Virus record (IMG/VR): IMGVR_UViG_3300007512_001664
Location: 96,001 to 160,000 of that record
Source of the DNA: a virus
Lineage: Duplodnaviria; Caudoviricetes
Direction: 5' to 3' (one strand)
Length of the DNA stretch: 64,000 nucleotides
Both the position numbers and the translations under genes were made by a program. The notes below the pieces were generated by a model. It saw nothing but the letters and a program-made list of their open reading frames with translations. It was not told the DNA's origin and ran no database searches. Every line of letters begins with the position of its first letter. Position 1 is the stretch's first letter. Below are positions 17,580-58,870 of this stretch, piece after piece.

Positions 17580-18335
17580 TTAATTATTAAACATGTATAT
17601 TGGATTAGGGGCGCTCAAATAATCATTATTATTTTCAGTTTGAAGTATTTTACATGATTTAAATCCGATTTCATCAATAAGATATTGTACAAAATTACTA
17701 TCTTGTTCTTCATAATTTTTAAAAGAAGCTCTTAATCTTATTTGAAAAAATGCAGTTTTACAATTGTCTTGAATATTTTTGAGCAGCTTAATTCCTCGCT
17801 CATTAAAAACTAGAGACTTTTTACCAGTATCACGCATCCATTTACTATAATGTTCTTTGTTTTTTTTCCATTCATCCAAAAAATGGTGCATTACATTAAA
17901 ACAAATACAATAATCATATGTTGTGTTTTTTTTCTTTACATTAAATATATCTTTGTTAATTTTTATTTTTTCGTGTCCTTGGAAAAACCGGTTTGCATCG
18001 GCGGCGATAAATTCAATATGATTTTTATCTAAATTATGATATTCGCGTAAAAAGTTATTTAGTTCAATATAATTTTTACTCTTATCAACACCTGTAACAG
18101 ATATCCCTTTACTACCTAATTCAAATGTATTCCAACCAACGTTACAGCCTATATCGATTAGTGTTTTATTTTCATTTAATTTAATTTCCGGGAGTATAAG
18201 GTTTAATCTGTTTTTAAAAGCTTTTATTTTTTTACGACCTGCACTAGACGCTGAAGGGAATCCCCACCACGGCTGATATCGTCCAGGAAATCGAGTTAAT
18301 AAAAAATATGTATTATCTTTGTCACTCATTGTCAT
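17580..18335 (-). CDS. Class I SAM-dependent methyltransferase, WbdD-like (glycan-capping type)
   Basis: Motif I LIDIGCNVG, VTGVD, FNVMHH; N-terminal YQPWWGFP...RLNLI resembles the WbdD MTase domain as I recall it. Confidence 0.75.
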   Translation of the reverse strand: MTMSDKDNTYFLLTRFPGRYQPWWGFPSASSAGRKKIKAFKNRLNLILPEIKLNENKTLIDIGCNVGWNTFELGSKGISVTGVDKSKNYIELNNFLREYHNLDKNHIEFIAADANRFFQGHEKIKINKDIFNVKKKNTTYDYCICFNVMHHFLDEWKKNKEHYSKWMRDTGKKSLVFNERGIKLLKNIQDNCKTAFFQIRLRASFKNYEEQDSNFVQYLIDEIGFKSCKILQTENNNDYLSAPNPIYMFNN

Positions 18336-18817
18336 CCTGTAGATCCAAATCCAGCACTTCCACGTTCAGTATCATCAACTTTATTAGTTTCTGTTACTTT
18401 TGCTGTAAAATGAGTATATAATACTATTTGTGCGATTTTACTTCCTTTAGGAAGTGTTACTTCAGTATCACTAAAATTATATAATTTTACTCCTAGATCA
18501 CCTCTATAACCATTATCAATAATACCTAAATGAGGTTGAATGTTATGCTTAAACCCTAAACCACTTCTAGGTTCTATTCTAAACCAAAGACCAGGTGTTA
18601 AGTACGCGAGTGTTAATCCTACCGGAACAACAACTGATCCTCTTCCAGGAACAATAACCTCTTCAACACTATATAGATCATACCCGGTATCACTGTTATG
18701 TGCTTGTTCTGGTAGCTTTGCATCTGGATGAGTTCTTACAAAACTCATTTTAAAATCTCCTGGAAAACGACCTCCAGTGGCTTTTAATTGTTCGTTAATG
18801 CTGCCTTTTAATTTCAT
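18332..18817 (-). CDS. dut: Trimeric dUTPase
   Basis: GYDL, PRSGL, GIIDNGYRG, IAQ, RGSAGFGSTG (motifs I-V). Confidence 0.96.
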   Translation of the reverse strand: MKLKGSINEQLKATGGRFPGDFKMSFVRTHPDAKLPEQAHNSDTGYDLYSVEEVIVPGRGSVVVPVGLTLAYLTPGLWFRIEPRSGLGFKHNIQPHLGIIDNGYRGDLGVKLYNFSDTEVTLPKGSKIAQIVLYTHFTAKVTETNKVDDTERGSAGFGSTG

Positions 18818-18823
18818 ACGACA

Positions 18824-18851
18824 AATATAGTGTATATATTTCGTTTTTCAA
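18824..18851 (-). promoter_or_regulatory. Sigma70-like early promoter of dut (leaderless)
   Basis: TTGAAA-N16-TATATT, then 6 nt to the ATG at 18817. Confidence 0.55.
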
Positions 18852-57617: not shown

Positions 57618-57624
57618 TCCTTAT

Positions 57625-57653
57625 AGTATAAAGAATATGAAGCAATAAATCAA
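57625..57653 (-). promoter_or_regulatory. Sigma70-like promoter of gp43 (leaderless)
   Basis: TTGATT-N17-TATACT, then 7 nt to GTG 57617. Confidence 0.6.
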
Positions 57654-58870
57654 CTAATTCCGTTTAAGCGATTAAGATTTTTTCTCTTTGGATCACCATA
57701 CGGAAATGAATATAATTCAGTGTAGAAGTTAATATTATCTTCCATCCATCTGGATTTCATATACTCCCGAGCTCGTTTTACCTCTTTTATATATTTTTTA
57801 TAATCACTAGTTAGATATTTTATTTTATCTATTAAGTCGTCTCCGGTAGTAAATTTATGAAATGCAGTATCATATGTGCATAAGTCTTGACAGATAGTTG
57901 GAATCCCTAGCGCACAACCTTCAATAAATTTTAAATCACTTTTAGCTTTATTAAAATTACTATTTTCTAATGGAGCGTAAAAAACTGTAGGGTTCTTACT
58001 GTATATATATGCAGGGTAATCTACTAAATTAGTCCATTCATGATATTCAATTTTTTTCTGTGATATTAAGTCTCTTAATGTTAATGGAAAGCCCCCTATA
58101 AATACCCATTGAAATTTGTCTACTGTTTTTCTTATCACATCGTTAATATGAAAAAAATCATCTTTCTGTTTGATTCTATTTTCAATATCGAAATGAGCAC
58201 CACTACCACAATATACTACTCTTGGTTTGCGTTTAAATTTTTGAAAATTTTCTTTAATTGTTGTAAGATCAAAATATCTATCCATCCAAAATCTAGGAAT
58301 AAAATTAGGCACAACAGTTACCTGTTTATTACCAGTTTTTTCCATATAGTACTCCTGCATAAACTTATTGGTTACAGTAATTTCGTCACATGCAGCCATG
58401 ATTTCCATACTAGTTTGTCTGATTTTTGGATCTTCAAACGCAAATCTAAATTTATTATAATGAGGTATATCTTCTTTGAATATTATATCGTCTATTTCGT
58501 ATATGACGTTAAAATGTAATTCTTTGGATAATTCTTTTAACCATTTTATATAACTTGCTTGAGTTTTAGTTGCTTGTCGTTGAATTCGGACTGTTTTAAC
58601 TCCACTGTAAAAAGCTTTATCTCCAATCATTACCGTACCACCCTGTACGTTTGCTTTGCTATAGCAGTTAAGCAGCAACTCTGGCCAGATCATTCTCCAA
58701 TGACCACAACCTGAATAATCTGCGTAAAAATTTAAACCTCGGGGAAGATCTGGTGCAGCACCATCTGTCTTAGGACGTTCGTTTTTAGGTCGAGGTAGAG
58801 CTAAAGACGGATTACCTGTCGGTATCGGTGCGAATGGTAAGCGAGGCATATGATTAAGATGCGAAATCAT
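57650..58870 (-). CDS. GT-B fold glycosyltransferase (GT4-like)
   Basis: DYSGCGHWRMIWP, IYEIDD, ITVTN, VVPNF, FNKAKSDLKFIEGCALGIPTI. Confidence 0.8.
   Translation of the reverse strand: MISHLNHMPRLPFAPIPTGNPSLALPRPKNERPKTDGAAPDLPRGLNFYADYSGCGHWRMIWPELLLNCYSKANVQGGTVMIGDKAFYSGVKTVRIQRQATKTQASYIKWLKELSKELHFNVIYEIDDIIFKEDIPHYNKFRFAFEDPKIRQTSMEIMAACDEITVTNKFMQEYYMEKTGNKQVTVVPNFIPRFWMDRYFDLTTIKENFQKFKRKPRVVYCGSGAHFDIENRIKQKDDFFHINDVIRKTVDKFQWVFIGGFPLTLRDLISQKKIEYHEWTNLVDYPAYIYSKNPTVFYAPLENSNFNKAKSDLKFIEGCALGIPTICQDLCTYDTAFHKFTTGDDLIDKIKYLTSDYKKYIKEVKRAREYMKSRWMEDNINFYTELYSFPYGDPKRKNLNRLNGIS

Follow-up and report, generated by a model that had tools for sequence, protein, structure and literature searches.

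A tailed phage that appears to make its own activated rhamnose raises the question of what it would attach the sugar to. The window considered here, that is, the whole analysed stretch of 64,000 nucleotides, covers bases 96001-160000 of the IMG/VR record IMGVR_UViG_3300007512_001664, which is 200,819 bp long, carries direct terminal repeats and has a completeness rating of 100%; the virus is an uncultured, marine, T4-like myovirus. The original prediction had seen in this window a dispersed but complete glycan kit of six genes. All six open reading frames (ORFs) were found exactly as proposed, and their predicted products are the following:

17580-18335, minus strand: class I S-adenosylmethionine-dependent methyltransferase, 251 aa, between the gp44 clamp loader and dUTPase genes
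31783-32676, plus strand: RmlA, glucose-1-phosphate thymidylyltransferase, 297 aa
42765-43769, minus strand: RmlB, dTDP-glucose 4,6-dehydratase, 334 aa
43759-44688, minus strand: NRS/ER (UER/UGER)-type bifunctional NDP-4-keto-6-deoxyglucose 3,5-epimerase/4-reductase, 309 aa
50541-51242, minus strand: GT-A glycosyltransferase, GT2-like, candidate rhamnosyltransferase, 233 aa (PF13712, 2.6e-13)
57650-58870, minus strand: GT-B glycosyltransferase, GT4-like, 406 aa, between the gp46 (Rad50-like) and gp43 polymerase genes

We tentatively consider that the phage has a much larger, wholly cytoplasmic system for building glycans, of which the window holds two core transferases and the genes of donor supply; its target may be the host envelope.

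The predicted rhamnose route

The product of the gene at 43759-44688 matches the structures of Arabidopsis NRS/ER (PDB 4QQR, 2.2e-36) and mimivirus L780 (7JID, 2.6e-19) much better than that of RmlD (1VL0, 6.6e-4), and with the RmlD model TIGR01214 it scores 45 bits against a cut-off of 224 bits. It is the sole RmlD-like short-chain dehydrogenase/reductase (SDR) in the genome, and no separate RmlD 4-reductase was found. Residues C115 and K185 align with the Cys/Lys pair of epimerisation (Cys108/Lys175 in L780), S113, Y146 and K150 align with the Ser/Thr-Tyr-Lys triad of the reductase, and G8, G10 and G13 form the GxxGxxG motif; the numbering of the Arabidopsis catalytic residues is that of Han et al. 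2015. C115, Y146, K150 and K185 are invariant across 51 diverse homologues. In L780, Cys108 and Lys175 have been proven catalytic by mutagenesis, and both L780 and NRS/ER take dTDP-linked substrates (PMC9614988). Moreover, the RmlC cupin, PF00908, was searched for throughout the complete genome of 200.8 kb without a single match at E<=1, the control search being positive in 11 of 14 reference genomes. As judged from these alignments, the phage NRS/ER would replace RmlC plus RmlD in one enzyme.

RmlA and RmlB are, by their family matches, of the bacterial type. RmlA matches PF00483 (3.5e-54), E. coli RmlA (PDB 1H5R, 1.2e-78) and TIGR01207 (4.7e-90), its 301 bits lying under the equivalog cut-off of 360 bits, and the N-terminal nucleotide-binding motif GGTGSR..P is intact in the translation. 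RmlB, also below the equivalog cut-off of its model (TIGR01181, 2.4e-94), is closer to bacterial or archaeal dehydratase structures (PDB 6BI4, 3.9e-70) than to mimivirus R141 (6VLO, 9e-44), and the motifs GxxGxxG, TDE and YxxxK can be read in it. The rmlB gene shares 11 nt with the NRS/ER gene and 20 nt with the RNase H/FEN gene; rmlA lies ca. 10 kb away from both rmlB and the NRS/ER gene, on the opposite strand. A further NAD-dependent epimerase/dehydratase of the SDR type is encoded outside the window and also outside the glycan island described below, at genome 44783-45736 on the plus strand (PF01370, 1e-54; PF16363, 1e-49); its identity to RmlB is about 25%, and its presence points to another pathway of sugar-nucleotide synthesis.

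The enzyme matches, the intact catalytic residues, the lack of RmlC and the acceptance of dTDP-linked substrates by L780 and NRS/ER make a complete three-enzyme route to dTDP-L-rhamnose (RmlA, RmlB and NRS/ER) plausible, and to this extent the original prediction of activated L-rhamnose stands. Given the strong homology, it is very probable that RmlA would produce dTDP-glucose, RmlB would convert it to dTDP-4-keto-6-deoxyglucose, and the NRS/ER SDR would epimerise the latter at positions 3 and 5 and reduce it at position 4.

With each prokaryote species represented by a single genome, a scan with a profile built from 12 sequences rendered more than 588 NRS/ER hits, at 31-37% identity and overwhelmingly in Verrucomicrobiota and Planctomycetota, with RmlB and RmlA genes adjoining the NRS/ER gene in 53-56 of 80 fetched loci. 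Verrucomicrobia had been described by Yin et al. 2011 as holding the only bacterial homologues of NRS/ER (PMC3220709), and a 2019 survey described organisms with the udp-type enzyme as being without rml genes (bioRxiv 10.1101/854612). The hybrid route found in the phage and in operons of the Planctomycetes-Verrucomicrobia-Chlamydiae (PVC) phyla contradicts this statement of non-co-occurrence. The giant-virus analogy of the original prediction holds for the type of the NRS/ER enzyme; the closest operon architecture, however, is bacterial, in the PVC phyla.

Among 50,697 phage records, none carries an NRS/ER homologue, while 196 carry RmlB-like and 139 RmlA-like genes, mainly coliphages of the phAPEC8/phi92 type with the classical four-gene cassette. 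Uncultured viral contigs, on the other hand, commonly carry NRS/ER. In a maximum-likelihood tree the T4-like NRS/ER sequences form one clade (100% SH-aLRT) apart from the bacterial sequences, and the subclade linked to RmlB is monophyletic (99%); this tree, midpoint-rooted, with no outgroup and with no eukaryotic or giant-virus rows, is silent on the ultimate origin of the gene. An NRS/ER homologue of 41% identity is found in a 7.7-kb contig labelled 'MAG: archaeon isolate ARS54', a metagenome-assembled genome (MAG; L109, NYZO01000029.1), and branches inside the T4-like viral clade beside the viral contig L042 (95% SH-aLRT), so that a viral fragment has probably been assigned to the MAG of an archaeon.

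Core and lineage-restricted genes

For three relatives all ORFs were compared with those of the phage, namely G005 (ca. 98% protein identity), G004 (ca. 65%) and G001 (ca. 45%), the last being a complete genome of 229.7 kb. NRS/ER is 95%, 58% and 42% identical to its counterparts in G005, G004 and G001, respectively, and GT-A 75%, 65% and 32%; GT-B is 98% identical in G005 and 49% in G001, the G004 contig ending before the gene. The NRS/ER gene is present in G001 and in G004-G010, which include five further large relatives. RmlA (97% in G005, 74% in G004) and RmlB (88% and 67%) have no match in G001. In G008, the 132-kb contig of L200, the NRS/ER sequence is split at 58181-59036 into residues 1-245 and, after a TAG stop, 258-309; the gene may be decaying, or else the assembly is wrong there.

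Gene order leads in the same direction. In the first 41 IMG/VR NRS/ER loci, in all that are long enough, the order is GT-A, gp41, ..., gp32, ..., NRS/ER, RmlB, RNase H, primase, and rmlB adjoins the NRS/ER gene in loci L001-L039 and L041; a deeper clade holds NRS/ER at the same site without RmlB. GT-B has homologues in 882 clusters and in 552 IMG/VR stretches, and all of the latter that are long enough show the order UvsW, gp47, gp46, GT-B, gp43, UvsX, QueC, (GuaC-like), GATase, GT-A, gp41, GATase being a glutamine amidotransferase; the QueC-GATase-GT-A order is also kept in G001. GT-B diverges no faster than gp46 or gp47. This distribution and synteny across relatives indicate that NRS/ER, GT-A and GT-B belong to the ancestral core of a large lineage without cultured members, fixed in its replication module, and that RmlA and RmlB, found in a subclade only, are a later or lineage-restricted completion. 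That most of the six genes lie in replication operons, as had been proposed, is the case for five of them, the exception being rmlA, which lies between the tail sheath and large terminase genes. The early expression assumed in the original prediction is deduced from gene position only.

The methyltransferase at 17580 is an accessory by the same evidence. It is missing from G005, G004 and G001 and corresponds to an exact indel of ca. 750 bp relative to G005, with flanks 98% identical; in IMG/VR it turns up on just four other contigs, each time at this site. Its matches are to class I families (Methyltransf_23, 12, 25 and 11, with E-values from 1e-10 to 6e-7); no NCBIfam model comes close to its cut-off, and neither a kinase nor a coiled-coil family is among the Pfam and NCBIfam matches. 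It is best described, from sequence, as a generic single-domain methyltransferase inserted at strain level. The likening of this 251-aa protein to WbdD, in which a kinase and a methyltransferase domain are combined with a coiled-coil ruler, has therefore to be abandoned, and methyl-capping by a generic enzyme that is missing from three larger relatives is not supported. The idea, raised with the original prediction, that the genes may be patchily distributed and degenerate among relatives applies to the methyltransferase only; the pathway genes are conserved and syntenic.

It can also be the case that the six genes do not make up one system: the rhamnose genes would boost or replace the dTDP-rhamnose of the host, as an auxiliary metabolic function, or feed only the transferases of the glycan island (see below), and the substrates of GT-A, GT-B and the methyltransferase would be unrelated. 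The genes are spread over four distinct contexts of transcription, and one of them, that of the methyltransferase, is an indel. G001 keeps NRS/ER, GT-A and GT-B without RmlA and RmlB, and compact RmlA-NRS/ER-RmlB operons are known from other viral contigs in which the 10 kb around them hold neither a GT-A nor a GT-B homologue. However, NRS/ER, GT-A and GT-B are co-inherited through the lineage, the structural neighbours of GT-A include rhamnosyltransferases, and a donor pathway without a transferase would serve the virus nothing, so that we regard a mere collection of unrelated genes as improbable.

The transferases, the glycan island and the acceptor

GT-A is predicted to have a GT-A Rossmann-like fold of the GT2 type (AlphaFold2 model, pLDDT 94.2). 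The best PDB match of the model is UDP-bound majastridin (2QGI, 1e-12), and ranks 2-4 of its Swiss-Prot structural neighbours are StrF, E. coli WbbL and Shigella RfbF, with Mycobacterium tuberculosis WbbL at rank 12. The DxD-type motif H71-D72-D73 is invariant in 44 homologues. The two WbbL proteins and RfbF are dTDP-rhamnosyltransferases, the acceptor of WbbL being GlcNAc-PP-undecaprenol, and these neighbours are the only evidence that ties any of the transferases to a rhamnose donor; the TM-score with WbbL and RfbF is up to 0.68, at an identity of 13-15% (13-18% across the neighbours).

GT-B has no Pfam or PDB match in sequence. Its model (pLDDT 86.8; residues 1-37 below 50, the N-terminal ca. 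40 residues being disordered and proline-rich) would consist of two Rossmann domains in a GT4-type topology. A Foldseek search against the PDB rendered BshA, WaaG, PglA, MshA and PimB' at probability 1.00, and nearly all of the 50 best listed matches are GT4-type or related GT-B enzymes, none of these 50 being an alpha-gt or beta-gt DNA glucosyltransferase. Swiss-Prot structural neighbours include WclY and ALG1. Only 1 of 120 GT-B homologues matches PF13524, and of the EX7E motif the second Glu (E317) alone is invariant, the first position being variable. WclY, WaaG, PglA, ALG1 and PimB' all use lipid-linked acceptors.

The window does not hold all of the glycan genes, contrary to the complete kit of the original prediction, from which, besides, the methyltransferase is missing in a relative ca. 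98% identical. A glycan island of ca. 29 kb, a run of plus-strand genes, starts 6.8 kb past the window, at genome ca. 166.9 kb, and contains at least 15 glyco-related genes, so that at least 20 are recognisable in all, five in the window and at least 15 in the island. By family, its glycosyltransferases are a GT32-like DXD protein, a TOD1/MUCI70-like enzyme and two GT2 domains, one of them fused to a kinase-like domain, and its methyltransferases are two Methyltransf_24 proteins, a GXM/IRX15-like sugar O-methyltransferase (2e-32) and a further class I enzyme. Also encoded are an FkbM/GT1-like protein, a 2-hydroxyacid dehydrogenase fusion, two CMP-sugar cytidylyltransferases, an HpcH aldolase, a HAD-nucleotidyltransferase and a radical SAM protein, and many ORFs of the island have no Pfam match. 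The kinase-like fusion, an unusual 469-aa protein (genome 185931-187340, plus strand), joins a protein-kinase/ABC1-like region to the GT2 domain and is the gene that actually recalls the kinase part of WbdD. The ends of the island are 91-100% identical in G005, with one ORF at 73%, while its middle (genome 179163-190909) is replaced there or only 29-41% identical. Such replacement between phages that are ca. 98% identical, with the flanks kept, amounts to a cassette swap, as in O-antigen loci.

In a crude hydrophobicity scan no protein with more than two hydrophobic segments was found genome-wide, and with no polytopic protein the phage would encode no flippase, polymerase, ligase, permease or initiator of the WecA/WbaP type. 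The host envelope is our preferred, if tentative, acceptor. GT-A would transfer rhamnose and GT-B would add another sugar, for which the chance is somewhat short of even. The acceptor would possibly be a primer that hosts have conserved and that is carried on a lipid, such as GlcNAc-PP-undecaprenol; the island would extend and methylate the chain, and the flippase and ligase of the host would export it, with the result that the surface polysaccharide is rewritten, a sequence of events that we hold with less than even confidence. Rewriting might block superinfection, RmlA and RmlB would free the rhamnose supply from the host, and the methyltransferase at 17580 would be an optional add-on. What speaks for this target are the lipid-linked acceptors of nearly all structural neighbours of the transferases, the O-antigen-like cassette swap, and the interpretation given to similar genes of pelagimyophages (PMC7029224).

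Several observations weigh against the host envelope. The identities of the transferases to their fold neighbours are 10-18%, and such neighbours mostly mirror the composition of the database; RmlA and RmlB both score under their NCBIfam equivalog cut-offs; and the translational coupling of GT-A is with a GATase-QueC module, not with the rml genes. Since no initiating phosphoglycosyltransferase, flippase, polymerase or ligase is provided by the phage, export would depend wholly on the host. Moreover, GT-B is as conserved as gp46 and gp47, which is unusual for superinfection exclusion and fits better with an acceptor encoded by the phage.

This last point leads to the virion, the capsid, tail or fibre proteins of which could be decorated in the cytoplasm by the soluble transferases, the island building strain-specific, methylated outer glycans. 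All of the glyco-enzymes are soluble, in a genome with neither export machinery nor a polytopic membrane protein; the NRS/ER type is that of mimivirus fibril rhamnose; the island has many methyltransferases, the GXM-like sugar O-methyltransferase among them; GT-A and GT-B are conserved like replication proteins, as would be expected of a conserved phage-encoded acceptor; and the protein-glycosylating GtfC and SdgB are among the fold matches of GT-B, whose sole homologue in a cultured phage is a Streptomyces phage glycosyltransferase (positions 2299-3324 of an 82-kb record) encoded beside a sugar-nucleotide enzyme. Glycans of this kind would resemble those of chlorovirus and mimivirus capsids or fibrils and the O-glycosylation of mycobacteriophage virions. 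However, the core transferases lie in the replication module and not in the structural module, a literature search found no glycosylated T4-like virion, and there is no obvious selective driver for strain-level swapping of coat cassettes in seawater. A Ser/Thr-rich stretch is present in one ORF alone genome-wide (window 4504-5622), which is uninformative. All in all, glycosylation of the virion seems to us rather unlikely, though a serious alternative.

The DNA of the phage was favoured, along with the host envelope, by the original prediction, and is brought to mind by the genes next to GT-A, which lie between UvsX and gp41 in one operon with it:

51239-51877, minus strand: class II GATase (PF13522, 6e-11)
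51879-52835, minus strand: IMPDH/GMP-reductase-like protein (PF00478, 8e-61)
52810-53496, minus strand: QueC (PF06508, 2e-59)

The GT-A gene has 4 nt in common with the GATase gene and 20 nt with that of gp41. A second module related to 7-deazaguanine, at genome 10372-13617 near the head genes, encodes QueF, a P-loop kinase-like protein, a formyltransferase and two ORFs without Pfam matches. NRS/ER, GT-A and GT-B would put rhamnose or another sugar on phage DNA, possibly on a base derived from 7-deazaguanine, in analogy to the glucosyl-hmC of T4. Consistent with this are the invariant sites of both transferases among gp41, UvsX, gp43 and gp46, the 4-nt overlap of GT-A and GATase in the QueC operon, with QueF and a formyltransferase elsewhere, the nucleoside-glycosylating GT-A enzyme AvpGT among the fold matches of the GT-A model, and the proposal by Olsen et al. 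2020 of rhamnosyl-DNA in coliphages with rml genes in their DNA-metabolism region (PMC7552041). On the other hand, the complete genome has no match to PF00303 (ThyA/dCMP-hydroxymethylase), PF12851 (TET/JBP) or PF00145 (C5-methylase), and thus no known route to a hydroxyl handle; to our knowledge, the known phage deazaguanine bases carry no hydroxyl group. PF01702 (tRNA-guanine transglycosylase/DpdA) was undetected in the genome as well, a weak negative in that phage DpdA is often too divergent for PF01702, and the deazaguanine papers found mention no glycosyltransferase. Against a library of viral proteins, GT-B matched a DNA alpha-glucosyltransferase at rank 12 only (TM-score 0.45), behind generic GT1 and GT4 proteins.

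The lack of an exporter or polytopic membrane protein and of a recognised hydroxymethyl-pyrimidine route disfavours classical DNA glycosylation, and the preference for DNA is not borne out. Hypermodification of the nucleobases is in our view highly unlikely, and we give still less credence to the particular case in which the sugar that the core trio adds to the DNA contains rhamnose and the modified base possibly derives from 7-deazaguanine. An analogy with the queuosine glycosylases, of which GTDC1 is a GT-B and B3GNTL1 a GT-A enzyme, was considered and rejected: neither of them is within the 30 best listed Swiss-Prot structural matches of either model.

Genome setting, known systems and significance

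Further features of the window place the glycan genes in a T4-like genome:

28853-31699, minus strand: tail sheath
32970-34214, plus strand: DUF1552 (HXXSHH, PF07586) protein, 414 aa (4.5e-78)
34795-36513: large terminase (TerL)
40686-41714: primase-type zinc-finger protein (a weak match, under the Pfam cut-off)
48154-49053, minus strand: DHH/DHHA1 phosphoesterase (RecJ/nanoRNase-like, weak Pfam matches), between gp41 and gp32
54975-57617: family-B DNA polymerase gp43

The ORF at 28853-31699 had first been taken as the DNA polymerase. Recognised by family are also the gp44-like clamp loader, the gp41 helicase, RNase H/FEN, gp32, UvsX, gp46 (Rad50-like), gp47 and a UvsW-like helicase; the portal, prohead protease and major head protein are encoded at the genome start. 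A megablast search for near-identity against cultured phages gave zero matches, and the best identities to cultured phages are 36% for TerL (cyanophages) and ca. 35% for the sheath. Parts of the region recur in DNA runs of marine or seawater origin, 20 in number and belonging to 15 studies, and none of the RNA runs searched holds them.

The rmlA gene sits between the tail sheath and DUF1552 genes, close to the large terminase gene. The DUF1552 gene is kept in G005 (99%) and missing from G004 and G001. This family is typical of Planctomycetes and Verrucomicrobia; since bacterial NRS/ER is distributed in the PVC phyla too, the gene may be a clue to the host or to a donor of genes. The DHH/DHHA1 phosphoesterase is kept in G005 and G004 and was undetected in G001. 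The octamer TATAAATA, which resembles the T4 late promoter, occurs at 13 sites, against 21 expected by chance. One copy, at window 31774-31781 on the plus strand, ends 1 nt ahead of the rmlA start codon, and another, at 36514-36521 on the same strand, lies 5 nt ahead of the ORF at 36527-37774. Both copies are too close to the start to act as a conventional promoter, and the one at rmlA, which abuts the ATG, was rejected as such; transcripts without a leader, or initiation in an AT-rich context, may account for them.

What is described here is a phage rml pathway with an NRS/ER-type enzyme and two core glycosyltransferases in the replication module; phage rml operons and lipopolysaccharide (LPS)-type genes of marine myophages had already been published. 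Phage rhamnose operons and LPS-like gene sets have been on record for more than ten years, and we know of no acceptor identified for any of them. Like Arabidopsis NRS/ER (UER1) and mimivirus L780, the phage enzyme is a single SDR of ca. 300 aa with the Cys/Lys pair and the triad, at ca. 30-40% identity over the aligned part, but it is encoded by a tailed phage and partners bacterial RmlA and RmlB, on dTDP and not with a UDP-glucose dehydratase. Operons of Verrucomicrobiota and Planctomycetota have the same three-gene hybrid, with no RmlC or RmlD; by comparison, the phage proteins are 31-37% identical and form a separate viral clade, its rmlA is distant, and its rmlB and NRS/ER genes are in a replication operon. 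Coliphages of the phAPEC8/phi92 type (Phapecoctavirus, Justusliebigvirus) are virulent myoviruses with dTDP-rhamnose genes among those of DNA metabolism, as here, but their cassette, rmlB-rmlA-rmlC-rmlD, includes the classical RmlC and RmlD, at 39-45% identity to this phage.

As to the transferases, WbbL and RfbF (GT2) are, like the phage protein, small soluble GT-A enzymes with a DxD-type motif, whereas the Pfam match of the latter is PF13712 and not the WbbL family. LPS-type gene sets of pelagimyophages and cyanomyophages have been read as serving the modification of the host O-chain (Zaragoza-Solas et al. 2020, PMC7029224). In that paper the word rhamnose occurs 0 times; it was not searched for NRS/ER or for transferases in the replication module. 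The present lineage is distant from these phages, as the TerL and sheath identities indicate.

The lineage thus adds a different enzymatic solution to phage rhamnose synthesis, one NRS/ER-type enzyme in place of RmlC and RmlD, and combines a large investment in glycans (at least 20 genes) with the lack of an exporter. The evolutionary split is clean, with a core of NRS/ER and two transferases on one side, and optional RmlA and RmlB, methyltransferase and island cassettes on the other. NRS/ER, GT-A and GT-B, being small and soluble, lend themselves to expression and assay with no need of a cultured host. The transferases being core genes, a conserved acceptor is to be expected as well, be it DNA, a protein of the virion or a lipid primer of universal occurrence; the first case, if true, would mean that marine myoviruses of an abundant group hypermodify their DNA in a way that forms a class of its own, new to date.

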